A stretch of DNA of 64,000 nucleotides from a virus (taxonomy: Duplodnaviria; Caudoviricetes). Under the pieces are notes generated by a model, which was not told the origin of the DNA, ran no database searches, and saw only the letters and a list, made by a program, of their open reading frames with translations. A program made the position numbers and the translations under genes. Positions 4,153-61,362 of this stretch are shown here, piece after piece (the stretch's first letter is position 1; every line of letters begins with the position of its first letter). Where the stretch lies: IMG/VR virus record IMGVR_UViG_3300006922_000005. One strand, written 5' to 3'.

Positions 4153-4308
4153 TTATTTCTTTTGTTTCTTTTGTTTCTTTTTTACATGCAGTTTTGCATG
4201 TGGTACTTTTAAATTTTTCTTGCCATACACATCGCCTATTTTATGCTTGTATGACATATGTGCCGGATCTAATCCGTAGAAGTAATCTGTTACTTCACAT
4301 ATTTTCAT
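4153..4308 (-). CDS. 51-aa basic protein with an M-K-I-C-E-V leader (not in ORF track)
   Basis: MKICEVTDYFYGLDPAHMSYKHKIGDVYGKKNLKVPHAKLHVKKKQKKQKK; TAATG overlap with the upstream stop. Confidence 0.75.
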   Translation of the reverse strand: MKICEVTDYFYGLDPAHMSYKHKIGDVYGKKNLKVPHAKLHVKKKQKKQKK

Positions 4309-4898
4309 TACTCAAACTCTTTCAAAAAACTTGCAAACCCTTTTGTTAGAGATTGTTCTGTTGTAATTTTTCCTGATTTATGATCTTTTTCTAATTCTTG
4401 TCTACGTCTTATTAGTTCTTTTTTAAGTTTAGGATCTTTAGATGTGTTTGGATCCATTTGAATATCTTGTAATGCTTTTCTTTTTGCTCGATATTCTTCG
4501 TTACTCATTTGTTTTAAACCTTCAAGGCTTTCAAACACTTTTGCTAGTGTATTTTCAATTTTTGAAAGTCTACTGTCTACTTCATGCCACTTATCGTTAT
4601 ATGTTTGTTGTGTAGGTACAGTTGATTCTACTATGCGTTGTGGTTGTGGTGCTTGTGGAGTTACACTACTTAACCCTGCTAGTGCGGCCATATCACTTGC
4701 TCTAGTATCGCTTACACCAGGAATATGTTTTCCTTTAATACTTTCTGCAACCATACGTGCATGGGAGTTAGCATCTGTGCTTTGATTATTATTTTGTTCT
4801 TGTAACGCTTGACCGTGTTGTGGAGCGTCTACAGTAAGTCCTTTATTTTCAATTCCTAACTCAGTAAACTTATTTAAAATGCTTTGTAAATCTGCCAT
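4308..4898 (-). CDS. Putative capsid-internal/scaffold-like protein
   Basis: 196 aa, helical and low-complexity; TAAATA 3 nt before the ATG; lies in the leader-bearing cluster. Confidence 0.6.
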   Translation of the reverse strand: MADLQSILNKFTELGIENKGLTVDAPQHGQALQEQNNNQSTDANSHARMVAESIKGKHIPGVSDTRASDMAALAGLSSVTPQAPQPQRIVESTVPTQQTYNDKWHEVDSRLSKIENTLAKVFESLEGLKQMSNEEYRAKRKALQDIQMDPNTSKDPKLKKELIRRRQELEKDHKSGKITTEQSLTKGFASFLKEFE

Positions 4899-4904
4899 AA
4901 TTAT

Positions 4905-5060
4905 TTAAGAGACACTTTTGGATTTAGTGTTTCCTCCTCCTTGTCTTTTTTTACGTCCTGCACAATGAGCCTTTTGTGAGAAACCTTTGGGGTTCGAACA
5001 GTCAATTGACTTTTTATGTTTCTTGCTCCAGGCTTCACTAATAATCTCATAGTACCTCAT
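4905..5060 (-). CDS. 51-aa basic two-Cys microprotein with MRYYEIISE/A leader (not in ORF track)
   Basis: MRYYEIISEAWSKKHKKSIDCSNPKGFSQKAHCAGRKKRQGGGNTKSKSVS; ATGA overlap with 5057..5455. Confidence 0.8.
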   Translation of the reverse strand: MRYYEIISEAWSKKHKKSIDCSNPKGFSQKAHCAGRKKRQGGGNTKSKSVS

Positions 5061-5455
5061 TTCTTTTTAGTGGCAACGTTTTTTGCTTTACCACGTCTAT
5101 TTTTGTTTGGATCTTGTCTACGTTTTCTACTAGCCGCAGACTTCCTTCCTTTTTTACCTAATGATTGTGCTTTACTACGAGGTAAACATTTTGGCTTACC
5201 TTCACTGTTTGAGCCTCTTGCACAGTCACCACGAATTTTTCCATCAGGGCCAAAACGTACCCATTTATCTTTAAACCACTTTTTTAAGTTTTCGTCTATG
5301 GATTCAGAAAATACTAAATCACCACAATTTACACAGAAGTCAACATCTTCATTTTTAACACAATTAGGTACACGTTTTCCGAACATAGTTTTCATGCCCT
5401 TCTTTTTGTAGCCTTTCCAGCATCGTGTTCCTTCAGTGACTTCTATAATACGCAT
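5057..5455 (-). CDS. Basic Cys-containing two-module protein with MRIIEVTE/G leader
   Basis: Modules RCWKGYKKKG..PNCVKNE and LKKWFKDKWV..DC..KPKCLP..RKRR, separated by an acidic SESIDE/N spacer. Confidence 0.75.
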   Translation of the reverse strand: MRIIEVTEGTRCWKGYKKKGMKTMFGKRVPNCVKNEDVDFCVNCGDLVFSESIDENLKKWFKDKWVRFGPDGKIRGDCARGSNSEGKPKCLPRSKAQSLGKKGRKSAASRKRRQDPNKNRRGKAKNVATKKK

Positions 5456-5862
5456 TAATCTTTATCCCAACTCTTACTTACTTTATCTGTATGTATTGGT
5501 CCACCACCGGCCCATGTTCTACAAGTTCTAGCACTGTGACATTTAAATTTGTGCATCCAGCAATAACCTAAATATCCATCTTCATCTTCTAGTTCACCTG
5601 GCATACATTCAAGCATACCTGGACTAATATCAAAAGCGGCACAACTATTACATAAAGTTTTTTCTGCGGCGTCTACACTTGTTTTCCAAAACTTTGCAAT
5701 CTTTTCATAATAGTCACCTGGATGTTTTACATTCAATGGACCATACTGAATATGTTCTGCTTGTATAGCGGCATTACGATTCTTAGTATTAAGTTCTAAA
5801 TCTTGTGTTGCTAGTGGGCAACCTTTTTCACCTGCTTCTACGATTGCAATTAAGTTTCTCAT
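5455..5862 (-). CDS. Cys/His-rich probable Zn-binding protein with MRNLIAIVE/A leader
   Basis: CxxC (CNSC), C, YCWMHKFKCHSARTC. Confidence 0.7.
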   Translation of the reverse strand: MRNLIAIVEAGEKGCPLATQDLELNTKNRNAAIQAEHIQYGPLNVKHPGDYYEKIAKFWKTSVDAAEKTLCNSCAAFDISPGMLECMPGELEDEDGYLGYCWMHKFKCHSARTCRTWAGGGPIHTDKVSKSWDKD

Positions 5863-6461
5863 GATTTACTATTTCCCCAGTTCTTAGCACCTTTTTTACG
5901 ACACTGTACTAGAGCACCACTTGCATATGCACTTGGCCATACTTTGTAACGTGCTTTAACTTTATGATAACAAGCATCTTTTTCACCAGCGGCTTCGTCA
6001 AATTGTGCTTCTGTCATAGTCTGTGCTGATTCAACAAATACTTCTACCATGTCATCGCCATTACGCAATGCACCTTTTTTAACTTTTACGTTTTCTTTGC
6101 CGTATTTTTTTGTTGCTTCTTCTGGAGACATTGAAGTTTGTTTCCAACGCTTCTCTGCTTCCTTTACTACTGATAATTTTTCTTCTAGTGATTCAAAATA
6201 ATCATCTTTTTGATCTTTCATACTCATCATACGTTCACGTTCTTTGGCTTGCATACGCTCGCCTTCCATGTAAGCATGAAGTGTTTTTACTTTTTCGTGT
6301 ACACCACTGAATTTGTTTTGAAACCACTCAGGGAATGTTCCACCCTTGTGTACATGGTCATGAATTTCTTCTACTGCGTATTTGATGTATGCAACCTGAT
6401 TGGCAAGCATTTCATCTTCGTACTTTGATGCTGGCTCATCGTACTTGTCTTCATTAATCAT
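5859..6461 (-). CDS. Modular acidic/basic protein, putative capsid-internal
   Basis: Ends in the basic module DACYHKVKARYKVWPSAYASGALVQCRKKGAKNWG after MTE/AQFDE/A; SD AGGAG and TAAATA upstream. Confidence 0.7.
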   Translation of the reverse strand: MINEDKYDEPASKYEDEMLANQVAYIKYAVEEIHDHVHKGGTFPEWFQNKFSGVHEKVKTLHAYMEGERMQAKERERMMSMKDQKDDYFESLEEKLSVVKEAEKRWKQTSMSPEEATKKYGKENVKVKKGALRNGDDMVEVFVESAQTMTEAQFDEAAGEKDACYHKVKARYKVWPSAYASGALVQCRKKGAKNWGNSKS

Positions 6462-6499
6462 CGATTGCTCCTATAATGTGTTTTGTATTATACGAGTAT

Positions 6500-7069
6500 T
6501 TATCGTTTTAGTGGTCCGCCGAAGATAGATGTGTCTTTCATATTAAGAGCATTATCTGTTGGCTTTTGCTTTTTTGCTTTAGGAGGATTAGGTAAACCGC
6601 CTACTAAACCGTATTTTTTACGTGTTTTTGCGTCACCTATTGCTAAATGCGGACTTGCAACTGAGGCAATGTTACCTGCACTAGTTGCTCCTGCTGTTGC
6701 TGTTTCTTCAACTTGTTCTAATCCTTTAAATATATCGCTAGATTCTTGACTAAGTTTGGCCGCAATAGCCATTTGTCTACGTTTTGCTTTGCTTTTACCT
6801 TTAAATTGCGGAGCATCGCTTTTGTAGAAATCTTTAATAACATCACCCATTTCAGTATCTTTAGTAATCTTTTCAGATACAAAACTTTCAAACTGTTGTT
6901 CCATAGGTGTTTTTTTGTATTTTTCTTTACGTGGGATAGTCTTAGTTTTATCTTTATGAGAGCCAGATGCGCCACTTTTACGTAGTGCTTCCATATCACG
7001 CCAATTAGGATCACGTGATTTACTTGGTTCTAATTTTTTTACTGCTTCTACTAAGTCTTTTAAACGCAT
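6500..7069 (-). CDS. Modular protein with MRLKDLVE/A leader
   Basis: Lys-rich modules separated by FESFVSE/K and VEE/T; TAAATA-N5-ATG. Confidence 0.7.
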   Translation of the reverse strand: MRLKDLVEAVKKLEPSKSRDPNWRDMEALRKSGASGSHKDKTKTIPRKEKYKKTPMEQQFESFVSEKITKDTEMGDVIKDFYKSDAPQFKGKSKAKRRQMAIAAKLSQESSDIFKGLEQVEETATAGATSAGNIASVASPHLAIGDAKTRKKYGLVGGLPNPPKAKKQKPTDNALNMKDTSIFGGPLKR

Positions 7070-7074
7070 ATTGA

Positions 7075-7080
7075 TATTTA
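7075..7080 (-). promoter_or_regulatory. Late promoter box TAAATA (representative). Others on the minus strand: 4902, 6497, 11587, 14137, 19428, 22159, 25920, 29820, 32060, 35077, 42000, 43656, 49389, 49736, 53692, 56262, 61332, 61787; plus strand: 22222, 42038, 58148
   Basis: Matches the core of the T4 gp55 late promoter TATAAATA and recurs in front of structural, lysis and cargo genes. Confidence 0.75.
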
Positions 7081-7269
7081 CCTATCTTTAAGAATATTTT
7101 TCATAACATTAGTTGCTGTATTAGTAAAGCATCTTGGAGCAATACTATGTACTAGTAGTGCAGGTACTAGCAGTTGTAATTTTACTGCTGTTTTAATTGC
7201 CTTCCTCATATGCTGTAATCCTGTTTCACCTTGTTCTTCTAAGTGTAGTTTACATTGTTTACTTAACAT
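7078..7269 (-). CDS. Small hypothetical protein
   Basis: 63 aa; HLEEQGETGLQHM...LLVHSIAP; tight operon spacing. Confidence 0.7.
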   Translation of the reverse strand: MLSKQCKLHLEEQGETGLQHMRKAIKTAVKLQLLVPALLVHSIAPRCFTNTATNVMKNILKDR

Positions 7270-8057
7270 TACGCCGCCTCTCTTTCTTTTTCTTTACTAG
7301 CAATCCACTTCATCATATTTGTAGCAGGGTTTGCCAAGTACCATCCAACGTCACTATATGTTTTAAATTTACTTGCTAATAGATCTGCTGATATAGATGA
7401 AAAGGACCTTCTATTTTGTACAGTTATTAATTCTTTAACTTTTTTACCACCAAACGTACTTAAAAAAGATTGTAAGTTTAGCATATAATAGAAAGGTGTA
7501 TCTAATATAACTTCACCTTTGTGTTGACTATAACTAGGAATACCTTTTTGATAGCCACTTAATATTTTTTGCATTTCCTCATCTGGTAAATCTTCGCGAC
7601 CTTGCCCACGGACTAATGTTCCGCCTTGGTCATCATATGCTCCTTTTTGAAATTTTGGATCATATCCTTTGAAGCCACCCAAGTCGTCTATGTCTGGGTT
7701 CCAATAAGCAGTAAAGTCACCACCTGGAATTATTATATGATTTGTACCAAAATAGTCACTAGTACTACTAGGTGCTACTGTAGTTGTTTGTGCAGGACTA
7801 ACAATGTTTAAATCGTTAAGCACTGCTACCTGTATAGGATTGTGATTTCCCATTACGCTTTTTCTTGCAGGGTTATCTACCTTTTGTATTAGATTTTGTT
7901 TAGCACCGCCGTGGTATGTGCCTGTGTGCATTGCCCTATAAAGAATAGGTTGGTTTCCCATTTTACTACAAAGTTCAGCGGCAACTTTTAAACGCTCTAT
8001 AGCATGTTCTGTATTATTAGTTGGTGTAACAACTTCTGTTACTTCGCATATCCTCAT
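7269..8057 (-). CDS. Possible ADP-ribosyltransferase-fold protein with MRICEVTE/V leader
   Basis: Ordered motifs ILYRAM ... SSTSDYFG ... KGEVIL fit the R-S-E ART signature; function inferred only. Confidence 0.45.
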   Translation of the reverse strand: MRICEVTEVVTPTNNTEHAIERLKVAAELCSKMGNQPILYRAMHTGTYHGGAKQNLIQKVDNPARKSVMGNHNPIQVAVLNDLNIVSPAQTTTVAPSSTSDYFGTNHIIIPGGDFTAYWNPDIDDLGGFKGYDPKFQKGAYDDQGGTLVRGQGREDLPDEEMQKILSGYQKGIPSYSQHKGEVILDTPFYYMLNLQSFLSTFGGKKVKELITVQNRRSFSSISADLLASKFKTYSDVGWYLANPATNMMKWIASKEKEREAA

Positions 8058-8761
8058 TTCTTTTTGCCACTCTTCATATTAGCACACCAGTGATACATCT
8101 TTGCTTTTTCACCACTTGCTTTTTTAGCCTTTGCTCTTAAACTTGTAACTGATCCGTTACAACTAGCACCCGACTTCTTTACTCTGCCTGGGCGACTCTT
8201 GCCCTTTTTTTTACCGTCTGCGAAGTTTTCTTTTACTTTATTATTATCTAAGTGTAATAGTATTGTTTTAAAACTTCTTTCAAACTTATGATCTTTGTGT
8301 TTGACTCCAATGCCTCCCGCGGCATTCCATTTGTCAATATTTTGTCCAAAGTCATCTATCAGTATGTTGGGAGTACCATCACTTTGCTGTGCGTACTTGG
8401 CTTTGTTTCCTGTGATGATTACTGATTTAGGTGGAAACTGTTTAAGATTGTTTTTCACCCACATACGTTTATGTGGTTCTGATCTAGGATCGTCAGCCAA
8501 AGGCGAACTTAAAATAGTATAACTGCCTTTATGTTTTTGAATCAAAGCCAAAAGTTTTCCTGCGTTAGGAGTAGGTTCGAGATCTAACCAAAAGTTGTCT
8601 GCATCTCTAATTGCTTGAAGACCTGCATCGATATCTTTAATATCACGAAAGTCTTTTGCACCCATAAGTTTTGCCCAAGCACCAAAGAAGTCAACAAGGA
8701 CACCGTCCATGTCTACGTAGATTTCAGGTTTTGAATTATTACTGATTTCAAATAATCTCAT
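8054..8761 (-). CDS. HAD-family 5'(3')-nucleotidase-like domain with a C-terminal basic module; MRLFEIS leader
   Basis: IYVDMDGVLVDF (DxD), ILIDD; then VKE/NFADGKKKG...MYHWCANMKSGKKK. Confidence 0.8.
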   Translation of the reverse strand: MRLFEISNNSKPEIYVDMDGVLVDFFGAWAKLMGAKDFRDIKDIDAGLQAIRDADNFWLDLEPTPNAGKLLALIQKHKGSYTILSSPLADDPRSEPHKRMWVKNNLKQFPPKSVIITGNKAKYAQQSDGTPNILIDDFGQNIDKWNAAGGIGVKHKDHKFERSFKTILLHLDNNKVKENFADGKKKGKSRPGRVKKSGASCNGSVTSLRAKAKKASGEKAKMYHWCANMKSGKKK

Positions 8762-8973
8762 TTACGTCCTCTAAATCCTTTAAATCCTGCGCCAGTCATA
8801 TAAGGTCTTGAAAACCATAATTCAAACCATTCTTTGTCACCAGGTTTGACACCTAACTTACGTTCTTTATCTTTTAGTTCTTGTGCAGTATGTGACATGT
8901 TTTCTAATGTTTGATGATTATCATTTCTAACAATATCTACACCTGCTAATTTTTTTAACTCATCTAATGTCAT
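8758..8973 (-). CDS. Small hypothetical protein (MTLDELKKLAG leader)
   Basis: 71 aa; ATGA overlap with the downstream gene and a 4-nt overlap (ATAT-type junction) with the upstream gene. Confidence 0.7.
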   Translation of the reverse strand: MTLDELKKLAGVDIVRNDNHQTLENMSHTAQELKDKERKLGVKPGDKEWFELWFSRPYMTGAGFKGFRGRK

Positions 8974-9836
8974 ATTAGTTTGTACGCTTTCATCATTTTT
9001 TTAAGAGTACCTTTTTTAACATCTTTAGTTGTGTTTTGCTTTGTAATAATTCCAACGCCGGCGGCTTCTGTACTTTTTATTGCATCTTGTTTAAATGCTT
9101 TATCTACGCCAATTTTACTTGCCATGGCTCTACGTTTTTTAAGTTTATCTGCAACACTTAATTCTTCTGGTTCAGGTGGACGTCTTTTAACAGTGTTTCT
9201 TTTTGGAGTTCTAGTTGCAAACCCCATTATCTCATTTACTTCAAGACCCATTCCTTTGCGTACTCTAGCAAACATTTGTTTAGCAAGAGTTTCATTTCCT
9301 GAAATACCTTGTGCAAAACTAGTAAAATCATCGTCAGCGGCAAACTGTCTTAGTTTACTTGCACTCATACCTTGTACACCTTCAGCATCAGGATCACGTT
9401 CTCCACTGCTTACTACTTTTGCATTTGCAAACGTAAAAGGAACTTCACCTTTAGTATCTGGCTTATTATTGTACTTGTCAATTAAATCTTGATATTGTTG
9501 CACTCTATCACTTCCTGCAACAAGTATAACATTATCATAACCTTTACCTTGTAGATGTTGAAACATTTGAATAATAGTTTTTACACTAGTATTTTTATCT
9601 ACAGGTACATTAAACATTTCTTGAGCAAAATGTAATTTTTCTGCAAATGATAATGGATCTGTTTTTGGTTTTTGTGTTTTAGTTAAAAACAAAATAGGAT
9701 CACCCATAAACTTTTGTGCATGTTGATTAACAACATCTATAACTTTTTGGTGACCTATAGTTGGCGGATTCATTCTTCCCCAAGCAACTACTGCTGTCTT
9801 CTTTGGTTGTGCTTCAAGCAGTTCGTTGAGTAGCAT
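8970..9836 (-). CDS. Cytidylyltransferase-like (HIGH-superfamily) nucleotidyltransferase with MLLNELLE/A leader
   Basis: WGRMNPPTIGHQKV, VAGSDRV, GERDPDAEGVQGMSASKLR. Confidence 0.8.
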   Translation of the reverse strand: MLLNELLEAQPKKTAVVAWGRMNPPTIGHQKVIDVVNQHAQKFMGDPILFLTKTQKPKTDPLSFAEKLHFAQEMFNVPVDKNTSVKTIIQMFQHLQGKGYDNVILVAGSDRVQQYQDLIDKYNNKPDTKGEVPFTFANAKVVSSGERDPDAEGVQGMSASKLRQFAADDDFTSFAQGISGNETLAKQMFARVRKGMGLEVNEIMGFATRTPKRNTVKRRPPEPEELSVADKLKKRRAMASKIGVDKAFKQDAIKSTEAAGVGIITKQNTTKDVKKGTLKKMMKAYKLI

Positions 9837-10196
9837 TTAAGCCTCCTTGGTATCGTATGCGCCGTCTTTAATGTGTGGTAGGTGTTTTTCCGCTAGTTTG
9901 TGACATATACTAGACATTAACTCTTGTGTGTAAACTTCTTCAGTCTTGCCAGATATGTTATAAGTTTCGTTGTACTTCATACAACCTGCTGTAACCATTG
10001 CTTCAAAGTATGGTGCAACTTCTTCAATTGAATCTTTTTCAACAATATTTTTTCTTTTTAGATCTGCTATAGCAGGTAAAAAGAATTCTTTATGGATTGA
10101 ATCGTCATTATCAATGAAGAAACTAATATCATCTATTAAGTCGTATTGTGGAGTACTATTATCGCTGTCTGCTGTAAAAAGTTCTTTTAATAACAT
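9837..10196 (-). CDS. Acidic hypothetical protein (MLLKELF leader)
   Basis: 119-aa ORF in the cluster. Confidence 0.7.
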   Translation of the reverse strand: MLLKELFTADSDNSTPQYDLIDDISFFIDNDDSIHKEFFLPAIADLKRKNIVEKDSIEEVAPYFEAMVTAGCMKYNETYNISGKTEEVYTQELMSSICHKLAEKHLPHIKDGAYDTKEA

Positions 10197-10202
10197 GTGT
10201 AA

Positions 10203-11564
10203 TTACCATTTTCTACATGACCAGTAACGTGCCTTAGTCTTAGGACCAGGATTGTCACAGTTGTGTCTAGCACGGAAACTTCTACGTCTTGCTGGATTAG
10301 ATTTTTTAATTCTCATATCCGGATCACCAAAGTTAACTTTAACTACATTACCTTTTGGATTCTTAACGTATACTTTAAACTTTTTAACATCACCACGCAT
10401 TGGTTTGTTTAGTTTAACAGTACGTCCTTGGTATTCTGCTTCTACAACATTTTCGTCATTTTCTTCAATCCAACCAAATGCTTCATAAAACTCATCTCCA
10501 TTAAATGATACATCAGTCTGTCCTTTAAACCATTCTGTTGCTTCTACATCTTCTGAATAAAAATCTAATTGAGGATCTTTAAATAATCTTTTTGCAAGTT
10601 GTGGATCTTTAGAAAATGATTTTTTAAATCTTCCTATTAGTTCTTCTCTTGGTGATGTATCTAAACTTGCTGGCATCATATGGTCAACAACATCTTCGAT
10701 GTCCATGTCTGGGTTATCAAGAATCGCTTTCACATACTTTTGCATATCTTTTAAATCTCTAAGGTATGGCATTATCATATCTATGTCGCCACCTTCTTCT
10801 CCAGTGTCGCCACCTGCTTTGTAAGTTTCTATATCTTGTCTTGCAGTTTGAAGATCAGTTAGTAACGTTTTGTAAGTCATCTTTACAAATGGTAATACTT
10901 CATCATAGGTTACACTATCTCTGTCGAAGTCTGATTCATTTGTTGACTCGTCTACTGGAGAAAATGACATGTGGTCTTTACATTTACTACACACTGCGTT
11001 GCCGTCTTTGTCTATTTCGCTATCTGCAGGTGCACCACAACAGTCACTTAACATGTCTGGTTCATCTTCTGATTCACTTACATCTTCTGTTGATTCCATT
11101 TCAGATGCATCAGGTGCATCACTATCTTTGTATGTACTTTGATCAGCATCTCTTTCAATATCCATACTGCGTATTGCATGTTTAATAACTTCAAAAGCAA
11201 GTGTCTGTTCTTCTTTAGACATAGTGCCTTTTTCTTTTTCGCTGAGTTCACCAACGAACATACTTAATTCTATTTGTGCATCTGACGATGGTTTAATACG
11301 TTGTGCAATTTCACCTAGTAATCTGCCTGGAGAGCGTTTTAGTTCGTCTTGATATAATGCAAGTCTTACTTTTGGATCAGTTAGGTCTTTGCCTTTGAAT
11401 GCTACATTGTTAGCAATGCTGTATTCGTTTTGTGCTGGTGTTGGGGGTGTAAAAGTAATATCCTTTACATGATTAATTGCATCGCTAAACTTCATTCTCT
11501 CCGGTTCTTTTTTGGCTTCCGTATTGAAAGAATCAAGTTTGTTTATTAGTGTTCTGAAATCCAT
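10203..11564 (-). CDS. Large acidic protein with a C-terminal highly basic Cys-containing module; putative capsid-internal polyprotein
   Basis: Acidic body with a CC-x13-CxxC motif; ends VVE/AEYQGRTVKLNKP...FRARHNCD...ARYWSCRKW; TAAATA (11587-11592) plus SD upstream. Confidence 0.7.
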   Translation of the reverse strand: MDFRTLINKLDSFNTEAKKEPERMKFSDAINHVKDITFTPPTPAQNEYSIANNVAFKGKDLTDPKVRLALYQDELKRSPGRLLGEIAQRIKPSSDAQIELSMFVGELSEKEKGTMSKEEQTLAFEVIKHAIRSMDIERDADQSTYKDSDAPDASEMESTEDVSESEDEPDMLSDCCGAPADSEIDKDGNAVCSKCKDHMSFSPVDESTNESDFDRDSVTYDEVLPFVKMTYKTLLTDLQTARQDIETYKAGGDTGEEGGDIDMIMPYLRDLKDMQKYVKAILDNPDMDIEDVVDHMMPASLDTSPREELIGRFKKSFSKDPQLAKRLFKDPQLDFYSEDVEATEWFKGQTDVSFNGDEFYEAFGWIEENDENVVEAEYQGRTVKLNKPMRGDVKKFKVYVKNPKGNVVKVNFGDPDMRIKKSNPARRRSFRARHNCDNPGPKTKARYWSCRKW

Positions 11565-12699: not shown

Positions 12700-12726
12700 G
12701 TTTTTATTTTACCAAAATAAAAGTGG

Positions 12727-12755
12727 TTGACAAGAGTGGTAAAACCAACTATAAT
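12727..12755 (+). promoter_or_regulatory. Perfect sigma70 consensus promoter
   Basis: TTGACA-N17-TATAAT. Confidence 0.9.
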
Positions 12756-13748: not shown

Positions 13749-14131
13749 TAGTAGTTTACCTTAATTGAATTGATACGTCCGTTTGAGTATGTTGCTATTG
13801 CTCTTAACCAAACAAAGTTACCTGTAAAGTTAGCAACAAAGTCAGTATCGGTATCTGCACCTGTTGTATATGTTGTTCCTGCAATATCAAACCAGTCAGA
13901 TCCCGCAGGCGAAGTGGCTAACGAAGCCTGCATTTTGACTTCTCCTGAAAAATCTGTAATACTGTAATGTACAGTATGTAGACCATCTCCACCTTTATAG
14001 TATCCGTCACCTTTAACTTTATCTGAAGTTAAAACTGTTTGTGTACTATCTGCTTCAGGTGTTTGTGCTACGGCCGAAATTGTTGTTCCGTCCTGATCGA
14101 TAAATTGTAATGTTGTACTGTTCGCTGGCAT
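13748..14131 (-). CDS. Putative virion structural protein (beta-rich)
   Basis: Thr/Gly/Ser-rich 127 aa; TAAATA-N5-ATG late start. Confidence 0.55.
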   Translation of the reverse strand: MPANSTTLQFIDQDGTTISAVAQTPEADSTQTVLTSDKVKGDGYYKGGDGLHTVHYSITDFSGEVKMQASLATSPAGSDWFDIAGTTYTTGADTDTDFVANFTGNFVWLRAIATYSNGRINSIKVNY

Positions 14132-14139
14132 ACAGTTAT

Positions 14140-14418
14140 TTATGTAATTTTAATCTTATAGGCTTTTGCTAACCTAGTAATTCCCATACCTTCAACATCA
14201 TTAATATCCGTTAATTTAACGTTGTATTTGTGGTCTCTACCAGCATAGTCAAGTTCCCATGCAACTATACCTTTCTCATTAGCAATAGTAACATCAATAT
14301 CTTTAGGTACTTCAACCACTTGACCTCCAATACCGTTTGCCTTTACAGTAGCATTGATTGTTGTACCGTGTTTGATTATTTTACGTTTGATTAGTTCTTT
14401 AATTATTTTATTGTTCAT
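14140..14418 (-). CDS. Hypothetical protein
   Basis: 92-aa ORF downstream of the clpA operon. Confidence 0.7.
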   Translation of the reverse strand: MNNKIIKELIKRKIIKHGTTINATVKANGIGGQVVEVPKDIDVTIANEKGIVAWELDYAGRDHKYNVKLTDINDVEGMGITRLAKAYKIKIT

Positions 14419-15130
14419 TTAGTTCCGCCTCTGTTATATATTCTTGTGTGCTTCTAATTGTATCGCCTAAATACATTTGTAACAACAGCAACATTTGTGA
14501 ATCTGTTGAGTACAAAAATCTTCCATCGGAATAGTAGCAATTTTCAATTAATTTTTTTGATGCTTTTAATTCGCCTGCATAGTTTTCTACCCATTCTTCA
14601 AACCCTGCTTGACGTACTAGTTTTCCTCTTAGATGTATTTTAAACCTGTATTTGTCATATGGTAAACGTTCACAGATTACATTGTTTGGGTTATTAGTAA
14701 AGTAATCTTCTTGCTTTTTGTTTTTAGGCCAAATCATTTCGTATAAATGATCTTTAAATGTGCCACAGAAGTTTTCCCATACTATTTTATCGTTTGTAAA
14801 GAAGCCAAGTTTATCACCTTCATTACGAATCTTATGTTCTTCGTGAATGTAATATTCTTGAATCCAATTGTATAACTTATACAAGGTAAATCTATTTTCC
14901 CATATTTCTTTATGTGATCTATGCCTTCCATCGTTTATACCTAATGATAAAGAACTGTATGCATAGTTTAAGTCGCCTATGCCTTTCCATTGTTCCATCC
15001 GTTCTGCATTAAACAGTGATTCAATATCACTACGTTTAGCATATCGAATAAAACTAGTTCTTGGTGTCTTTACAACTGCTTTGTACTTGTACTTTTTATA
15101 AAAAAGTTTAGTCGTGTGCGAGGTCTTCAA
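14408..15130 (-). CDS. Hypothetical protein
   Basis: 240-aa ORF overlapping the end of clpA. Confidence 0.75.
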   Translation of the reverse strand: MKTSHTTKLFYKKYKYKAVVKTPRTSFIRYAKRSDIESLFNAERMEQWKGIGDLNYAYSSLSLGINDGRHRSHKEIWENRFTLYKLYNWIQEYYIHEEHKIRNEGDKLGFFTNDKIVWENFCGTFKDHLYEMIWPKNKKQEDYFTNNPNNVICERLPYDKYRFKIHLRGKLVRQAGFEEWVENYAGELKASKKLIENCYYSDGRFLYSTDSQMLLLLQMYLGDTIRSTQEYITEAELNEQ

Positions 15131-17381
15131 CTTGGGTATCCTTTCCTAACGTTGGCATAAATTCCTTTATATCTAACGTAATATTTTCACCCTCTAAATC
15201 AACAGTAACATGTCCACCGTTAACCAACTTACCAAACAGTACTTCTTTACTCATTGGCTTTTTAATTTGATCATCAATAACACGTTGCAATGGTCTCGCA
15301 CCCATTTTTTTGTTGAATCCTTTTTTAACTAAAAACTCTTTAACTGTATCAGTAAGTTCAATAAGTATACCTTTGTCTGCTAACATATCGTTAACTTCTT
15401 TAATAAACTTATCTACAATTAGCATCATAGTTGATCTTTCTAGTTTATCAAACTTAATAATACCATCAAGTCTGTTTCTAAATTCTGGTGCAAAGAAATC
15501 TGTTACTGCATTGTCTTGTTCTCCTGAACGATCCATGTCACCAAATCCAATACCATTTTTCTCCATCTCTCTAGCACCTAAGTTAGATGTCATAATAACA
15601 ATAGCATTACGAGCATCTGCTTTTTTACCATTTGAACCTGTAACAAATCCATTGTCCATTAATCCTAACAACACATTTGAAACATCTTTGTGTGCTTTTT
15701 CAATTTCGTCTAACAATAGTATACAATTAGGATGTTCTTGTAGTTTAGTAATAAGTTGACCTGCGTCTTCTTCAAATCCTACATATCCTGGAGGTGCACC
15801 TATAAATTTAGCAACTGAATGTCTTTCTTGGAATTCACTCATATCAAAACGTACAAGTTCAGTACCCATTTCACTTGCAAGTACTTTTGCTGTTTCTGTT
15901 TTACCACAACCAGTAGGACCAACAAATAAGAATGAACCAACGGGTTTATTAAGTGATTTTAGTCCTGCTTGTGCAATAAAGATTTTATCAAGTAGTCCGT
16001 CTATGGCTTCGTCTTGCCCATATACTCTTGTTTTCATTCCACCTTCTAAATCTTTAAGTGTTTCAGTTTCTTTTGATGCAATTTGTTCTAATGGTAAGTT
16101 TGTCATTTTACTTACTTCAAAAACAACCTGATCATGATCAACTATACCGTTTTCTTCATCTTTAACTTTAAACCTAGCACCAGCACGGTCAATAATATCA
16201 ATTGCTTTATCTGGTAGTTTCTTATCTGCCATATACTTTTCTGAATATGTTACAGCACCATTAATTGCTTTGTCGGTAATTGTTACACCGTGATGTGCTT
16301 CATAATACTTTTTAAGTCCGTGTAAAATATCTATAGTAACTTCTGCTGTAGGTTCGTCAACTGTTACACGTTGGAATCTACGCATTAATGCACGATCCTT
16401 TTCAAAGTGCTTACGATATTCTTCCCATGTAGTTGAAGCAACTACTTTGATAGTTCCTTTACCTAATGCAGGCTTTAACATATTAGCCATGTCATTTGAT
16501 TGTCCACTACCGCCTGAACCAGCACCACTCATCATATGTGCTTCGTCAATAAACAAGATTGCTTTTTCTTTTTTCTCTAATGCATGGATAACCATTTTTA
16601 AACGTTCTTCAAAGTCACCTCTATATTTGCTACCTGCTACTAGAGCACCGATGTCTAATGAATAAACTGTACTACCTTTAATAAACTCTGGTACATTATC
16701 ATTTGCTATTTCAACAGCAAGTCCTTCAGCAATAGCAGTTTTACCTACGCCAGGATCACCAACCAACATTACATTTGCTTTTTGTCTACGTGCAAGAATA
16801 AGCACAGTTTCTTCAATTTCGTTAGCACGACCAATAACTGGATCAATCTTACCACGTTTTGCTTTTGCAGAAAGGTTTTCACAGAATGATGAAATAATTT
16901 TTTCTAATTGTGACATGCTGTACTGTTCACTTGCCGCTTCTCCAACTATTTGCTCTGCTTCAATAAAGTTACTAAACTTTTCAGAGTCAATACCATGCTT
17001 CCGCATACAGAATGCAGAAAATGATTTCTTTTCTTTTAATAATGATAAAAACACATCAATTGGATCTATTGTAGTTCTACCACTGAATAGCGTTTGTGTA
17101 AATGCTCTATTAAGCATACGTTCCATTGCTTGTGTTTTCTTAGGACGTCCTTTAAAATTAGGTACAACAATATCCTGAAGTTTATCTTGAATAAACGCTG
17201 ACAAGTCTTCTTTGATAGCATTTGTATCTGCACCAAACTCCGCTAGTGTTTTTGAAAATTCTTCATCACAAACCAATGCCATAGCAAAGTGTTCAATGGT
17301 TACATATTCATGTTCACCTGTTTGAGCAAGTTTGATTGCTTCTTCAAAAATTCCTTCTAACTGTTCATTAGGTTCAAGCAT
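15108..17381 (-). CDS. clpA: ATP-dependent Clp protease ATP-binding subunit ClpA
   Basis: N-domain HEYVTIEH; Walker A GDPGVGKT and GPTGCGKT; Walker B LFIDE and LLLDEIEK; IGF docking loop (NGIGFG). Confidence 0.95.
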   Translation of the reverse strand: MLEPNEQLEGIFEEAIKLAQTGEHEYVTIEHFAMALVCDEEFSKTLAEFGADTNAIKEDLSAFIQDKLQDIVVPNFKGRPKKTQAMERMLNRAFTQTLFSGRTTIDPIDVFLSLLKEKKSFSAFCMRKHGIDSEKFSNFIEAEQIVGEAASEQYSMSQLEKIISSFCENLSAKAKRGKIDPVIGRANEIEETVLILARRQKANVMLVGDPGVGKTAIAEGLAVEIANDNVPEFIKGSTVYSLDIGALVAGSKYRGDFEERLKMVIHALEKKEKAILFIDEAHMMSGAGSGGSGQSNDMANMLKPALGKGTIKVVASTTWEEYRKHFEKDRALMRRFQRVTVDEPTAEVTIDILHGLKKYYEAHHGVTITDKAINGAVTYSEKYMADKKLPDKAIDIIDRAGARFKVKDEENGIVDHDQVVFEVSKMTNLPLEQIASKETETLKDLEGGMKTRVYGQDEAIDGLLDKIFIAQAGLKSLNKPVGSFLFVGPTGCGKTETAKVLASEMGTELVRFDMSEFQERHSVAKFIGAPPGYVGFEEDAGQLITKLQEHPNCILLLDEIEKAHKDVSNVLLGLMDNGFVTGSNGKKADARNAIVIMTSNLGAREMEKNGIGFGDMDRSGEQDNAVTDFFAPEFRNRLDGIIKFDKLERSTMMLIVDKFIKEVNDMLADKGILIELTDTVKEFLVKKGFNKKMGARPLQRVIDDQIKKPMSKEVLFGKLVNGGHVTVDLEGENITLDIKEFMPTLGKDTQVEDLAHD

Positions 17382-17889
17382 TAATTAATCCTTTTTTAAT
17401 ATTTTTTCTAGCACGTTTACTAGCCATATCCCATTTTAAATTTGAAACACGGTCTTTAAACACTATGCCATTTAAATGATCACACTCGTGTAGATAACAA
17501 CGAGCATCATATCCTTCTATTCTTCCTACTTGTTTTTCTCCGTTTTGATCCCAAAACTCTGCAACAATCCAAGTTGGTCTTTTAACTTGCACAAACACTC
17601 CAGGAAAACTTAAACAACCTTCAATATCTAAAACTACATCAGTACTAGAATCTAATACAGTAGGATTAATAAAGATTTGTGCTTTATCTTTGTGTTGTTC
17701 ACTGCCCATAGTAAATGCCGCAGTTTCAATGCCAACTTGACATGCACTTAACCCTACACCCTTGTTAGCAAATTGTGCTTCTAACATTTTTTCTTTAAGT
17801 TCAATTGGATCCATAATTGGATTTTCAAAGTCAAATGCAGGCATTTGTTTGTTTAATACTTCTGCTGGATATTTAATTATTTCTAACAT
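17374..17889 (-). CDS. def: Peptide deformylase
   Basis: GVGLSACQVG, EGCLS, HECDHLNG. Confidence 0.95.
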   Translation of the reverse strand: MLEIIKYPAEVLNKQMPAFDFENPIMDPIELKEKMLEAQFANKGVGLSACQVGIETAAFTMGSEQHKDKAQIFINPTVLDSSTDVVLDIEGCLSFPGVFVQVKRPTWIVAEFWDQNGEKQVGRIEGYDARCYLHECDHLNGIVFKDRVSNLKWDMASKRARKNIKKGLINA

Positions 17890-17897
17890 ATTATATA

Positions 17898-18758
17898 CTA
17901 TACTTCCTTTTTAGTTTTTGTCAAGATCCTCGCTCGCTCAATTAGGTCTTTATGTGCATCATTTATATTCTTAGGAACAGTTCCCTTTACTTTTATGTAT
18001 AACGTTCCGAGGCCAGGGGCATTCACTATTGGCATACCCAATTCTTTCATACTAAAAACAGTACCTGGTTGTGTTCCTTCAGGAACGTTTAATAAAAATC
18101 CTTGATTAAAGTGTTCTATTTCGACCTTACAGCCTAGTATTAGTTCATATACAGTTAACACTATTGTTTTGTGTAAATCACATCCTGTACGTACAAATCT
18201 TGGATCTTTAGAAATACGAGCCGTAATTGTTAAGTCGCCTGGTGGAATATTTGGAATACTATCATCGCCTAGTCCACGTAACTTTATTGACTGTCCGTTT
18301 TCAATACCTGCTGGCATACGTGTATCAATTGTTTGTTTACGTCCACTTGGTAATGGTATTTCAAATACTACATTTTTTCCTTTGTATGCATCTTCAAGTG
18401 TTAGATCATAATTAATATTTAAAGTTTTATTTCTTTGTTGACGTTGTTGTCTACGTTGTCCAAACATGTCTCCAAATTGACCACTCATATCTCCACCAAA
18501 CATTTGAGAAAATATATCATTAATATCTCCCATATTATTTTGTCCTGCTTGTTGTGGATCAGCAGTTCCATACTGATCATACATGGCTTTCTTTTGTGGA
18601 TCTTTTAATACTTGATATGCTTCGTTAATGTCTTTGAACTTGGAATCATCACCGCCCGTACGATCAGGGTGATGTTGCATACTTTGTTTCTTGTATGCTT
18701 TTTTAATATCTGTGGCAGATGCGCCGCGGGAGATGCCCAAAGTGTCATAGTAGTTCAT
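17898..18758 (-). CDS. dnaJ: DnaJ/CbpA-type co-chaperone (no Zn finger)
   Basis: J domain with HPD motif, G/F-rich linker, C-terminal VPEGTQPG...GTLY. Confidence 0.93.
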   Translation of the reverse strand: MNYYDTLGISRGASATDIKKAYKKQSMQHHPDRTGGDDSKFKDINEAYQVLKDPQKKAMYDQYGTADPQQAGQNNMGDINDIFSQMFGGDMSGQFGDMFGQRRQQRQQRNKTLNINYDLTLEDAYKGKNVVFEIPLPSGRKQTIDTRMPAGIENGQSIKLRGLGDDSIPNIPPGDLTITARISKDPRFVRTGCDLHKTIVLTVYELILGCKVEIEHFNQGFLLNVPEGTQPGTVFSMKELGMPIVNAPGLGTLYIKVKGTVPKNINDAHKDLIERARILTKTKKEV

Positions 18759-25932: not shown

Positions 25933-26511
25933 TTATTTAGAGTAAGTACCGGTGATGATATTATAAACGTCTTTCCAGTTGTCTGCTCTTTGTACATCTG
26001 GATTGTCGTAGTCTAGGTTCCATTTGTGTGATATAATAATAGGTTTGTGTCCTGCACGTAGTCCTGCGTCACAGTTAAGTGGTTTATCTTCAATCCACCA
26101 ATGTCCTTTATCATACTCTGCAAGTGCTTCGTCTTTGTCAGCACCTGTTCCAATGCATAATACACGATCAAATGTACCTGCACCAAATACTTGTTCTAAA
26201 TTATATGCACGTAATTTACCAGAACATTCATCTTCAGATAAACTAGTAATAGCATCGAAAGTATAGTTAAGTGTTCTTAATTTTCTTACCCACTCAACAC
26301 TATCACGCAAAGGTTTTAAGTAACCAATCCATGCACTTTCGTTAAACTGTTTTACTAAAATATCGCATTGTTTTTTGCGTTGGAACCCGTAACGTACATA
26401 TTGACTATATACATCAGGCTTCTTTACACGAAAACCTTGTTTAGCCATCCATGCATCAAATGCAGGTTCCCAATCTAAAACTACTCCATCAACGTCGATA
26501 AGTATTTTCAT
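25933..26511 (-). CDS. HAD-family 5'(3')-deoxyribonucleotidase-like
   Basis: ILIDVDGVVLDW, WIEDKPLN. Confidence 0.8.
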   Translation of the reverse strand: MKILIDVDGVVLDWEPAFDAWMAKQGFRVKKPDVYSQYVRYGFQRKKQCDILVKQFNESAWIGYLKPLRDSVEWVRKLRTLNYTFDAITSLSEDECSGKLRAYNLEQVFGAGTFDRVLCIGTGADKDEALAEYDKGHWWIEDKPLNCDAGLRAGHKPIIISHKWNLDYDNPDVQRADNWKDVYNIITGTYSK

Positions 26512-41670: not shown

Positions 41671-41994
41671 TTAAACTCCGAAACTTTCCCCACATCCGCA
41701 ACTGCTTGTTGCGTTAGGATTGCTAATATTCATATAAGAACCAAAAACTTCTTTCTTAAAGTCTACTGTTGTACCTGCTACAAACATTAGACCTGCTCCA
41801 TCAATGGCAAAACTACCATTGCTTAATTCTATTACTTCATCGTCTTTGTTTACTTCGTTAACAGCATGCCATTCATACGTAAAACCAGCACATCCGCCGC
41901 CCTTAACGCTTAATTTAACGTACTTTGTGCCTTCCTTGGCAATTACGCTTTCCATGTGTTCTTTTGCTGAATCTGTTACATTTACGATGCTCAT
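41671..41994 (-). CDS. iscA: A-type Fe-S carrier (IscA/SufA/HesB family)
   Basis: VKGGGCAGFTY, NPNATSSCGCGESF. Confidence 0.93.
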   Translation of the reverse strand: MSIVNVTDSAKEHMESVIAKEGTKYVKLSVKGGGCAGFTYEWHAVNEVNKDDEVIELSNGSFAIDGAGLMFVAGTTVDFKKEVFGSYMNISNPNATSSCGCGESFGV

Positions 41995-42051
41995 GTCAAT
42001 ATTTATGTTAAAATTTTATAATCCGAATGTAAACGAGTAAATACAACTGAA

Positions 42052-43095: not shown

Positions 43096-43650
43096 CTATT
43101 TGTCTGTTAATATAATTACCCCGCAGGCTAGTCTTTCACCTGCGTTTCCGGTTTTGAGTGATTCTTCATCTCCGCCTTTGCCAAGATCGTCCTCATCTGA
43201 ATGAACTACAATACTACGACCCACTACACTTCGTTTGCCTATAAGGTCAATACGTTCTGCAATGATGGTGAAGTCGGCTATGCCGTCTGTGTTCGCTGTA
43301 ACATTTTCTAAATCGCCAACGTGACCGTTCTGTAATCCGCCGTGATCTACATTATCCGGATTGTAGTGGCCACCAGCAGTTTCACAGCCATTTGTCAAAT
43401 CACCAAATTCGTGTATATGAAATCCATGTTTGCCCGGCTCAAGTCCTGTAATACGTCCTACAATTACAGTGCCTTCACCTTCGTTCATTTGTCTTAATAG
43501 AATAGTACCTTTTACTGTTTCACTTTGTTCTAGTTCGCACATGGCTGTAACATGTGATTGTGATTCAGTTAGTGCTGATAAGTGGTTGCACTGGCACTCA
43601 GTGGCCTTCGTTCTAAAGCAACGTTTATCTGATATCTCTTGTAATTTCAT
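43096..43650 (-). CDS. sodC: Cu/Zn superoxide dismutase with an N-terminal extension
   Basis: [18 protein letters not shown]...[35 protein letters not shown]. Confidence 0.95.
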
Positions 43651-43658
43651 ACAACTAT

Positions 43659-43817
43659 TTATTGTTCTTTTTTATACAAGTCCCATAATTTATACTTGTT
43701 TCTCCAAGTGTTCATCTCTGATGCTAACTTGTCGTTATGTGGTATAAACTTTAGAGGTTCTTGCTCGAGTACTTTCCGGATTGGACTGCTCTCGAATAAA
43801 ATCTCGTCCTCGCTCAT
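43659..43817 (-). CDS. 52-aa hypothetical protein overlapping the 3' end of uvsE (not in ORF track)
   Basis: [52 protein letters not shown]; its TAA is part of the sodC late promoter. Confidence 0.5.
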
Positions 43818-47862: not shown

Positions 47863-48161
47863 ATAAAATATAAATCATCATGCATACCTGCATGTACACG
47901 ATGGAATACACCGTCTTTGATTAATACTGTATCACCTGGTTGTACTTTAATTGTTTCATCATCAAGTTCCATTTTACCAACACCTTCAATAAACATATAC
48001 ACTTCTTCTTGTCCGTCGTGTTTATGTCCTCTAGTGCTTTTTCTTCTGTTTAGTCTAGTACTTGATACAACTAAATTATTAAGTTCTGTATTGTCTTTTA
48101 CAATATAGTTTTCATCTTCTTTAACTATTTTGCCTCCGACTCTCCAATGTGTATATCTCAT
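47832..48161 (-). CDS. Cupin-domain protein (start revised to MRYTHW)
   Basis: GHKHDGQEEVYMFIEG...GVFHRV. Confidence 0.85.
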   Translation of the reverse strand: MRYTHWRVGGKIVKEDENYIVKDNTELNNLVVSSTRLNRRKSTRGHKHDGQEEVYMFIEGVGKMELDDETIKVQPGDTVLIKDGVFHRVHAGMHDDLYFICVFDGGRNH

Positions 48162-48162
48162 A

Positions 48163-49383: not shown

Positions 49384-49391
49384 AAGTGTAT

Positions 49392-53686: not shown

Positions 53687-53698
53687 AATGTTATTTAG

Positions 53699-55547: not shown

Positions 55548-55576
55548 ACTATACTATCGAATGATATAGATGTCAA
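55548..55576 (-). promoter_or_regulatory. sigma70-type promoter for tRNA-Leu and downstream genes
   Basis: TTGACA-N17-TATAGT. Confidence 0.8.
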
Positions 55577-56256
55577 CTATTTTGTATATAAAAATATGTT
55601 TTTTTGAGCAATTTTTTTATGACAGGATGTCTTGTGTTAAAGTTCCATGCAGTTAGATATCCTACTAGGTTAGGTGAAAGTAAGTTTCCTAGTTTGTCAC
55701 GAAGTTCAGTTGTATTGTTTGCTTTTCGTAACATATCTAATGCTTGTTCTTTATCTGCGTGTCTTAGCAGTTCGCTTGAGATATTCTTTGCAAAGGCTTC
55801 TATCTCATCTTGATTACCTAAATACTTTTGTTCTCTATCAGTTGCACGAAAACCTTTTTGTGTCGCAAAGTCTCTTTTACGATATTGTTTACTGTGAATC
55901 ATTTCATGTTCAAGTGCATCAATAACTCTAAACTTAACTTCTTCTATAGTATCTGCTGAAAACTTTATACCATCTTTGTTTTTTGGATTAAACAACAAAT
56001 CAATTCTATAAGGATCTAATTCATCTTCATCGTCCCATGGATCATATGTTGCATTAAGATTCATGTCATTAACATCAACGTTGTTAGTGTAGTCTACTGA
56101 TACTTTTTCAACTCCTAAACTTGCTATTAGGCTTTTTAACTTTCTAGCAATATACTTAGGTTGAAGATTATCTCTAGTAAGATACGTTAGAAAAGGTTCT
56201 AGTATCTTTGCTAGTTCTGATCTATCTTGAGGTTGTTGTACTTCATATAAACGCAT
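55573..56256 (-). CDS. HExxH zinc-metallopeptidase-like protein with MRLYEV leader
   Basis: LEHEMIHSKQ ... YLGNQDEIEAFA; TAAATA-N5-ATG. Confidence 0.6.
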   Translation of the reverse strand: MRLYEVQQPQDRSELAKILEPFLTYLTRDNLQPKYIARKLKSLIASLGVEKVSVDYTNNVDVNDMNLNATYDPWDDEDELDPYRIDLLFNPKNKDGIKFSADTIEEVKFRVIDALEHEMIHSKQYRKRDFATQKGFRATDREQKYLGNQDEIEAFAKNISSELLRHADKEQALDMLRKANNTTELRDKLGNLLSPNLVGYLTAWNFNTRHPVIKKLLKKTYFYIQNS

Positions 56257-56264
56257 AATGCTAT

Positions 56265-61326: not shown

Positions 61327-61362
61327 ATTTGTATTTATTTGTGTTTAAGTTGGTGCTAAAGT

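Follow-up and report, generated by a model that had tools for sequence, protein, structure and literature searches.

In bacteriophage T4, the internal proteins IPI, IPII and IPIII carry a short N-terminal capsid-targeting sequence (CTS; Mullaney and Black 1996, as reviewed in PMC9026906, PMC5694885), and the protease gp21 takes off the N-terminal propeptides of the internal proteins, Alt and gp24 after a Glu (PMC5694885, PMC9026906). In IPIII, residues 4 and 7 serve targeting and residues 8 and 10 processing, and an Asp at the cleavage position stops cutting but not targeting (PMC9026906); the T4 internal proteins are basic and, according to a review, touch DNA through Lys. Ejection proteins of the phiKZ/SPN3US type also have N-terminal propeptides on many head-internal proteins, cut after Glu by a gp21-related protease, but these are mostly more than 100 residues long and are cleaved at A/S/G-x-E, with a small residue at P3 (PMC5694885). 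In the open-access literature that was searched, T4 is the one phage with a described CTS, the propeptides reported from phiKZ-type phages are long, and no such tag is described in jumbo or marine phages; neither the omics paper on Pseudomonas phage PA5oct nor a comparative paper on jumbo phages mentions one. Here we describe a short N-terminal leader carried by most proteins of a 14-gene block at positions 4153-11564 (minus strand) of a 64,000-nucleotide (nt) stretch of viral DNA, IMG/VR record IMGVR_UViG_3300006922_000005 (Caudoviricetes), referred to below, at its full length, as the window. A first-pass annotation of this DNA had proposed that the leader is an address tag by which many proteins are packaged in the phage head for injection. 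Our analysis leads us to a similar reading, in which the leader is probably part of a T4-like capsid-targeting and cleavage propeptide system that would serve a larger, enzyme-rich cargo encoded at a hypervariable locus.

A leader shared by unrelated proteins of one gene block

The genes of the block are co-directional and tightly packed, with stops and starts that overlap or abut (Table 1). Eight of the 14 begin with the strict pattern M-[RKL]-h-x-[ED]-h (h, hydrophobic; x, any residue), mostly followed by x-E, a ninth has a loose variant of it, and outside the block the leader occurs on the Cu/Zn superoxide dismutase gene sodC and on the gene at 55573-56256. All the N-termini quoted in the first-pass annotation are present on the minus strand, and the two distant genes that it listed are real members, each with a TAAATA box five nt ahead of its ATG (TAAATA-N5-ATG). 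By contrast, MTLDELKK, which had been counted as a further leader, has to be removed from the set, as the protein at 8758-8973 (MTLDELKKLAG) carries another motif. The claim that the leader ends in a protease-type Glu applies to six leaders with a hydrophobic-x-Glu end of the (L/I)-x-E type (MRYYEIISE, MRIIEVTE, MRNLIAIVE, MRLKDLVE, MRICEVTE and MLLNELLE) and fails for MRLFEIS, MLLKELF and MRLYEV, which have no Glu at position 8-9, and for MKICEVTD, which has Asp in its place. The Glu is likewise missing at this position from the SodC leader MKLQEIS, and SodC has LTE at residues 27-29.

Table 1 Leader genes, other block genes and related features of the window.
Feature	Coordinates	Strand	Leader or N-terminus	Remarks
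51-aa (amino acid) basic protein	4153..4308	-	MKICEVTD	strict pattern; Asp in place of Glu
196-aa protein	4308..4898	-	no leader	TAAATA box 3 nt ahead of ATG
51-aa basic protein	4905..5060	-	MRYYEIISE/A	strict pattern; h-h-x-E spacing as in T4 tag (F-I-A-E)
132-aa very basic protein, isoelectric point (pI) 10.3	5057..5455	-	MRIIEVTE/G	strict pattern; phrog_727 modules
135-aa Cys-rich protein	5455..5862	-	MRNLIAIVE/A	loose variant of leader
200-aa protein	5859..6461	-	no leader	phrog_727/phrog_3477 basic Cys module
189-aa basic protein	6500..7069	-	MRLKDLVE/A	strict pattern; TAAATA-N5-ATG directly at start
63-aa DUF6356 protein	7078..7269	-	no leader	start overlaps stop of upstream 7269-8057
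262-aa protein, widespread phage family	7269..8057	-	MRICEVTE/V	strict pattern
NT5C/HAD 5'(3')-deoxyribonucleotidase-like enzyme, 235 aa	8054..8761	-	MRLFEIS	strict pattern; 54-aa basic tail
71-aa basic protein	8758..8973	-	MTLDELKKLAGV	different motif, not leader; matches [DE][IL][KR][KR]LAG[LIV]
Cytidylyltransferase-like enzyme, 288 aa	8970..9836	-	MLLNELLE/A	strict pattern; catalytic domain from residue 17; ~85-aa basic tail
119-aa acidic protein	9837..10196	-	MLLKELF	strict pattern; no Glu at position 8
453-aa acidic protein, first gene of unit	10203..11564	-	MDFRTLINKL (no leader)	basic Cys-containing C-terminal module (phrog_7595)
Cu/Zn superoxide dismutase (sodC)	43096..43650	-	MKLQEIS	Sod_Cu at residues 46-179; TAAATA-N5-ATG
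Cupin	47832-48194		MRLEDLY	strict-pattern match; profile score < 0; sugar-gene context
227-aa protein, function not assigned	55573..56256	-	MRLYEV	TAAATA-N5-ATG
TAAATA-N5-ATG sites	7067-7080, 14129-14142, 41992-42005, 43648-43661, 49381-49394, 53684-53697, 56254-56267, 61324-61337	-

The motif is far commoner than background, a point on which the first-pass annotation had staked its proposal. The strict pattern opens 10 of the 99 called N-termini in the window (in an open reading frame (ORF) set that omits 4153-4308 and so counts seven of the block's eight strict genes) against about 0.3 expected, namely 0.25 from composition and 0.35 from N-terminal composition, and it follows only 1 of 417 internal Met residues. 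A position profile built from 33 leaders, all of them from related contigs and none from the window, scored at least 5 bits at 7 of the 99 window N-termini as against 0.14% of internal positions; at the level of sequence, positions 3 and 6 were I, L, V, F or M in all 33 training leaders. The cupin gene was considered as a further leader gene and was treated as a chance match, given its position among sugar genes and its profile score below zero. Synonymous and non-synonymous codons alternate at the conserved positions (position 2 is encoded by AAA, AAG, AGA, CGT or AGG, positions 5 and 8 by GAA or GAG), and codon usage at these positions is near that of the genome as a whole. It is thus the peptide, rather than the RNA, that is under selection.

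The leader has several features in common with the T4 CTS. Both are short peptides at the extreme N-terminus in which Met and a basic or polar residue are followed by two hydrophobic residues, three apart, that flank an acidic one, and six of the window leaders also have an (L/I/V)-x-E end like that of T4. Both are found on unrelated, mostly basic proteins that vary among relatives and are encoded outside the head module, as well as on enzymes (Alt in T4). The N-termini in the T4 record are MKTYQEFIAE for IPII and IPIII, MKTFKEF...ITE for IPI, MELITELFDE for Alt, MAKINELLRE for gp24 and MLKEQLIAE for gp22. The leader differs from the CTS in its length (8-9 residues versus 10-19) and in that the second hydrophobic residue doubles as P3 of the presumed cleavage site (I-T-E) in most copies, unlike the F-I-A-E of T4. 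Whereas T4 has three internal proteins and Alt, about ten or more tagged genes lie here in one operon-like block, with others scattered. The cargo, known from sequence alone, also differs in kind, with SodC, a nucleotidase and a nucleotidyltransferase in the window and deaminase and GH19 domains in relatives; a basic C-terminal tail module recurs on different enzymes, and the phage is a jumbo phage of ~350 kb and the PA5oct/RaK2 type. Compared with the phiKZ/SPN3US type, the candidate propeptides are very short and have an aliphatic P3, as in T4.

The arrangement of expression signals was only partly as first described. The first-pass annotation had placed the genes under TAAATA boxes, which holds for four block genes with a box at most 45 nt from the start (4308, 5859, 6500 and 10203), for sodC and for 55573-56256, while the other block genes have no box of their own and are coupled to the preceding gene. 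Most block genes have no Shine-Dalgarno sequence, and their starts overlap the stop of the gene before; 10203..11564 has its TAAATA box 22 nt upstream, together with AAGGAG. Across the window, TAAATA stands exactly 5 nt before an ATG ten times, always on the coding strand, versus 2.1 +/- 1.4 times in shuffles, and eight of the ten are at called gene starts. With the geometry of T4-type late promoters, transcription would start at or beside the A of the ATG and yield leaderless late mRNAs. Sigma-70-like sites are not in excess inside the block, nor does it contain a minus-strand terminator. Upstream, back-to-back early-type promoters lie at 12706-12755; the plus strand has a perfect TTGACA-17-TATAAT, and the minus strand has TTGTCA-16-TAAAAT with a TG upstream. 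Late expression of the block is likely.

Links to T4 tags and to the head module of relatives

By its sequence, the window (35% GC) is from a marine jumbo phage of the PA5oct/RaK2 group, a group with a T4-like head module. PA5oct is its nearest cultured relative, with a clamp loader 56% identical to that of the window and syntenic homologues of 16 window proteins, and the completeness ratings of related IMG/VR fragments (15-31% for 52-111 kb) imply a genome of ~350 kb. The capsid protein of the family is present in more than 600 IMG/VR contigs and is ~67-72% identical to those of PA5oct, Serratia BF, Yersinia fHe-Yen9-04, Erwinia pEa_SNUABM, Vibrio phage 2.275.O and Sinorhizobium Phosso. No S77 protease gene was found in the window, and neither Peptidase_S77 nor Gp23 had a match in the related contigs G001-G009, of which G006, G007 and G008 end in a variable island (radical-SAM-like and other genes, with names read by eye) that holds no head genes. 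A head module is present in G010 and G011, which have few genes in common with the window; the capsid proteins of G011, a marine relative, and of Vibrio phage 2.275.O._10N.286.54.E11 are 70% identical. The S77 protease itself was found in the relative G012 (374 kb, rated 100% complete; protease at 365714-366352), in PA5oct and in 76 of 80 head loci of the family.

When the core of the marine profile was slid by up to two residues along the N-termini of 204 T4 ORFs as a control, gp24 ranked first, Alt third, alt.-1 fourth, gp61.1 fifth and IPI sixth. Among 460 PA5oct ORFs the top match, at 17.1 bits with a runner-up at 7.6, was EST35_0150 (MKINDIITEG), a 73-aa protein encoded directly after the portal and annotated as structural by electrospray ionisation tandem mass spectrometry (ESI-MS/MS), with the S77 protease two genes downstream; EST35_0230, which also has a leader-like start, is likewise annotated as an ESI-MS/MS virion protein. 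In the 80 related head loci (951 ORFs), only six ORFs reached 4 bits, and all six encode this small post-portal protein (phrog_13986). Its BLAST homologues in these loci (44 matches, with N-termini tallied only where the alignment includes the first residue) mostly open with M-x-L-x-E-(L/F)-(F/Y/L), for example MILRELF, MLLNEFF, MLLREFL and MKLLEFF, and are nearly identical to the cargo leaders MLLNELLE and MLLRELFE. The post-portal protein thus has the same motif as the cargo, but is a conserved head-module gene rather than variable cargo; it corresponds to T4 gp67 by position only. N-termini of the h-x-E type also begin the family protease, both scaffold-like proteins and the capsid protein.

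A second motif of the block leads to the same module. The pattern [DE]-[IL]-[KR]-[KR]-L-A-G-[LIV], found near the start of the 71-aa protein at 8758-8973, lies at the very C-terminal end of the gp22-like scaffold protein in each of the four family members inspected (G012 364578-365699; L110 10429-11538; in PA5oct it occurs in EST35_0153, EST35_0203 and EST35_0235), and it recurs in two PA5oct proteins found in virions by mass spectrometry. This LAG motif, common to a scaffold C-terminus and the N-terminus of a block protein, could be a second, capsid-binding address peptide.

The 262-aa protein of the block provides a further connection to T4. A profile search recovered at least 136 cluster representatives. 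Across 56 aligned members, whose columns average 18% identity, Glu8 is conserved in at least 90%, level with the presumed core residues. In orthologues the leader drifts (MRICEVTE, MKIREVTE, MKINEITE, MKVNEITE) within the pattern, with Met1 and Glu8 unchanged throughout. A leader of the general type opens most of the 56 proteins, and some have the T4 form (MKTFKHF, MKTFREF, MKTFSEF). One of these, P0118 (MKTFREF), is encoded on a 56-kb contig together with Gp44_lid, gp62, RegA and DNA polymerase B, genes that identify the contig as a T4-like phage. Of the comparative arguments for the marine leader as a probable functional counterpart of the T4 CTS, the occurrence of both tags within one family is the strongest. 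An AlphaFold model from the deep alignment (pLDDT, the predicted local distance difference test, 89.3) leaves residues 1-5 disordered and outside the fold; a model from 24 close homologues only (pLDDT 45) was discarded. The fold has no significant match among solved structures, its AlphaFold DB matches are all uncharacterised, the sequence has no Pfam or PDB match, and tblastn with the 262-aa protein and two family members bearing the T4 tag found no match in cultured phages. A fold of the ADP-ribosyltransferase kind, which T4 Alt has, was considered and drew several hints, all weak (Arr and DarT clusters, Atlas feature score 0.87; PARP-1, Foldseek probability 0.08; AvrPphF, Z 3.4; DUF4433, probability 0.14), and we regard this assignment as a weak lead.

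Variable cargo, basic tails and superoxide dismutase

Contigs at 78% and 48% identity and the complete relative G012 all have the tag and a locus at the same map position, but they differ in which tagged genes they hold there. The contigs keep the locus with partly different genes, and the replacement genes are again tagged (MKIRDIINEQ, MKIHDIISEA, MMKIQDLFEV, MKVFEITETA, MQVNQIVELD, MRLREITEGV); across related contigs, 18 BLAST families bear the leader on non-orthologous proteins. In G012, ten ORFs score at least 5 bits on the leader profile, with 0.9 expected. The first-pass annotation had suggested checking such a profile against TAAATA genes in relatives, and in G012 the enrichment is clear, with TAAATA-N3-7-ATG ahead of 6 of 15 leader genes versus 19 of 540 others (Fisher p = 1.7e-5); TAAATA-N5-ATG is common in this genome too. 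The main leader cluster of G012 (102.8-111.3 kb) lies between homologues of the window gene 2655-2918 and of the ClpA-like gene, which is the position of the block in the window. Its genes specify a protein with a dCMP deaminase domain, a GH19 hydrolase, a metallopeptidase-like protein, a DUF6321 protein of 808 aa and one whose cytidylyltransferase-like match is weak and lies under the Pfam cut-off. The hydrolase (103509-104144; L230 8509-9144) has the leader MRATEFVTEM followed by a stretch, DRRGFLRGLAGAGAMA, that resembles a twin-arginine translocation (Tat) signal. Different leader genes thus occupy one slot in G012 and in the window, as variable internal protein genes occupy one slot in T-even phages.

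The counterpart of 10203..11564 in the variant contig L027 starts MKLNDIYKK, and homologues of 9837..10196 begin MRIDEF or MKINEF. In L027 (1-7855; ENA ERZ27249141 k141_106753), which has an identical 262-aa protein, the cargo block comes directly after sheath, tube, gp4-like head-closure and other structural genes that take the place of the window's upstream genes, an arrangement that reflects either a rearranged relative or a chimeric assembly. The only megablast match of the block lies inside 5859..6461, where 287 nt (bases 6030-6316) are 75% identical to the Pelagibacter podophages Aegir and Kolga, which indicates that small basic Cys-modules (phrog_727, phrog_3477) are swapped between the jumbo phage and SAR11 podophages. 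Two small basic block proteins had no match in PDB sequence searches.

Both ends of the tagged proteins look like additions to a core. Block proteins have a median pI of 9.55, versus 5.8 in the rest of the window, and over the last 30 residues their net charge is +5.5, versus +0.13 (p = 5e-5). The PA5oct homologue of the cytidylyltransferase (190 aa) is without the leader and without the ~85-aa basic tail, and a second HAD paralogue in the window (25933-26511) has no leader and begins right at its catalytic motif. The nucleotidase tail (8054-8761, residues 168-235) is ~40% identical to the tail of the G012 dCMP-deaminase-domain protein (102847-103512, residues 155-219). Both end ...W-(C/M)-A-N-M-K-S-G-(K/R)-x-K-K, as does a 486-aa ORF of L017 with the cytidylyltransferase-type leader MLLRELFE. 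The presence of one tail on nucleotidase-like and deaminase-domain proteins suggests a transferable module. A separate module, G-x-G-x-I-T-K-Q-N-T-T-x-D-V-x-x-G, was seen after leaders or in tails of unrelated proteins, namely in the tail of 8970-9836, in SodC fusions of L281 and L314 and in L017 11816-13762.

SodC offers a similar case at a distance from the block. Bacterial SodC has a Sec signal at its N-terminus. The 45 extra N-terminal residues of the window protein comprise the leader, a Cys-rich stretch and LTE/S, and by inspection no hydrophobic signal-peptide stretch was seen in them. Most of 71 related phage SodC copies keep a leader, with M-[KR]-h-x-[ED]-h the commonest form (MKITELTQ, MRLYEVTK, MRALEFTE). 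After it there is commonly a C-P-R-T-K-A-x-x-C-x-C stretch and then a conserved site, L-(S/T)-E-(S/A), and TAAATA stands 3-7 nt ahead of the ATG in 35 of the 71 genes, often in the N5 arrangement. SodC was not found in the five related contigs searched.

Weighing the readings

Taken together, the T4 control, the post-portal protein, the S77 protease in the family and a cargo family with T4-type tags support the core of the address-tag idea of the first-pass annotation, once TAAATA boxes on all tagged genes and the membership of MTLDELKK are set aside. As we picture it, most block proteins would carry a propeptide of 8-9 residues, M-(K/R/L)-(I/L/V)-x-(E/D)-(I/L/V/F)-(x)-x-E, in which the two aliphatic residues three apart would dock the new protein onto the scaffolding core during prohead assembly. 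A gp21-type (S77) prohead protease would cut after the Glu of (I/L/V)-x-E and free the mature protein inside the shell, where the Lys/Arg-rich C-terminal tail seen on most of these proteins may hold it on the packaged DNA until, at infection, the cargo proteins would exit with that DNA. Core binding, cleavage, presence in the virion and injection are what we infer by analogy with T4. More tentatively, and with less than even confidence, we suggest that in abundant marine jumbo phages two tags, an N-terminal docking propeptide of 8 residues and a transferable basic DNA-anchoring tail, would make virion cargo, delivered along with the DNA, of arbitrary enzymes (to date superoxide dismutase, nucleotidase, nucleotidyltransferase, deaminase and cell-wall hydrolase domains), which would be swapped rapidly at a single arms-race locus.

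Several observations weigh against the propeptide reading. The terminal Glu is wanting in three or four window leaders, the motif was defined after inspection of the data, and orthologues are common to the sets used for training and testing the profile. The link to the head rests on relatives, since the window holds no head module or protease. PA5oct has both the protease and a ClpA-like gene, yet has few leader ORFs, and of the three that score best EST35_0075 is not among the proteins detected in virions. In one G012 protein, the Tat-like RRGFL and Ala/Gly-rich stretch after the leader would point to export. The early promoter on the minus strand (12733-12706), with no minus-strand terminator before the block, makes early read-through possible, and a virion role for the nucleotide-metabolism enzymes of the cargo is not obvious.

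The leader might also bring proteins into the prohead as core- or scaffold-like, DNA-condensing parts that are degraded, expelled or kept as filler, with no delivery of effectors. The best-matching proteins in relatives do sit at a head-core position, and many block members are tiny, very basic and without an enzyme domain. However, the same leader is found on folded enzymes (SodC, the cytidylyltransferase-like and NT5C enzymes, and the G012 deaminase and GH19 hydrolase), and the locus varies among close relatives in the manner of arms-race genes where structural filler would be expected to be conserved, so that we think this account unlikely. A different role is suggested by the neighbourhood of the block. 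Genes for a double-AAA+ protein of ClpA type (757 aa), for a peptide deformylase and for DnaJ lie together at 15108-18758 (minus strand), 4 kb upstream. Those for the ClpA-like protein and DnaJ hold their position in L003, L017 and G012, and PA5oct too has a ClpA-like gene. Cellular Clp unfoldases read short N-terminal motifs, and the leader might be a recognition tag by which the ClpA-like unfoldase (15108-17381) selects proteins for timed degradation, unfolding or translocation rather than for docking on the scaffold. For this phage subgroup, ClpA has been suggested to be a translocase or an assembly aid (Iyer et al. 2021, PMC7824862), which would suit such a role. On the other hand, PA5oct has the ClpA-like gene without an expanded leader set and its top leader match is a head-module virion protein, a member of the cargo family on a T4-like contig bears a T4-type CTS, and the conserved h-x-E end suits a Glu-specific prohead protease. 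We therefore give this alternative little credence.

Least of all do we favour a shared N-terminus with no role in targeting, imposed by translation-start constraints in coupled or leaderless AT-rich mRNAs or by a generic amphipathic first helix. The scarcity of Shine-Dalgarno sequences and the overlaps with preceding stops in the block, the leader genes with TAAATA-N5-ATG starts that would give leaderless mRNAs, and the AT-rich codons of the motif would all be accommodated by it. Conversely, synonymous codons vary at the conserved positions and chemically similar residues use unrelated codons, the motif is missing from ~90% of N-termini in the same genome, other TAAATA-N5 genes included, and N-terminal composition predicts only 0.35 matches. 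The motif is also kept in a family with 18% column identity and across phages of differing GC, and we consider this explanation very improbable.

If the propeptide reading is true, short T4-style capsid targeting would not be limited to T-even phages, but would be the general loading signal of the PA5oct/RaK2 group, serving a payload far larger and richer in enzymes. Provided that the tag works as in T4, it would give a simple sequence rule for listing which proteins are packaged and act first in a very large and abundant group of uncultured phages of the ocean, and the 8-residue tag could help to load foreign proteins into large capsids. The payload itself is unusual and, comprising SodC, nucleotide-modifying enzymes and small basic Cys-modules, points to testable functions in early host takeover or anti-defence.

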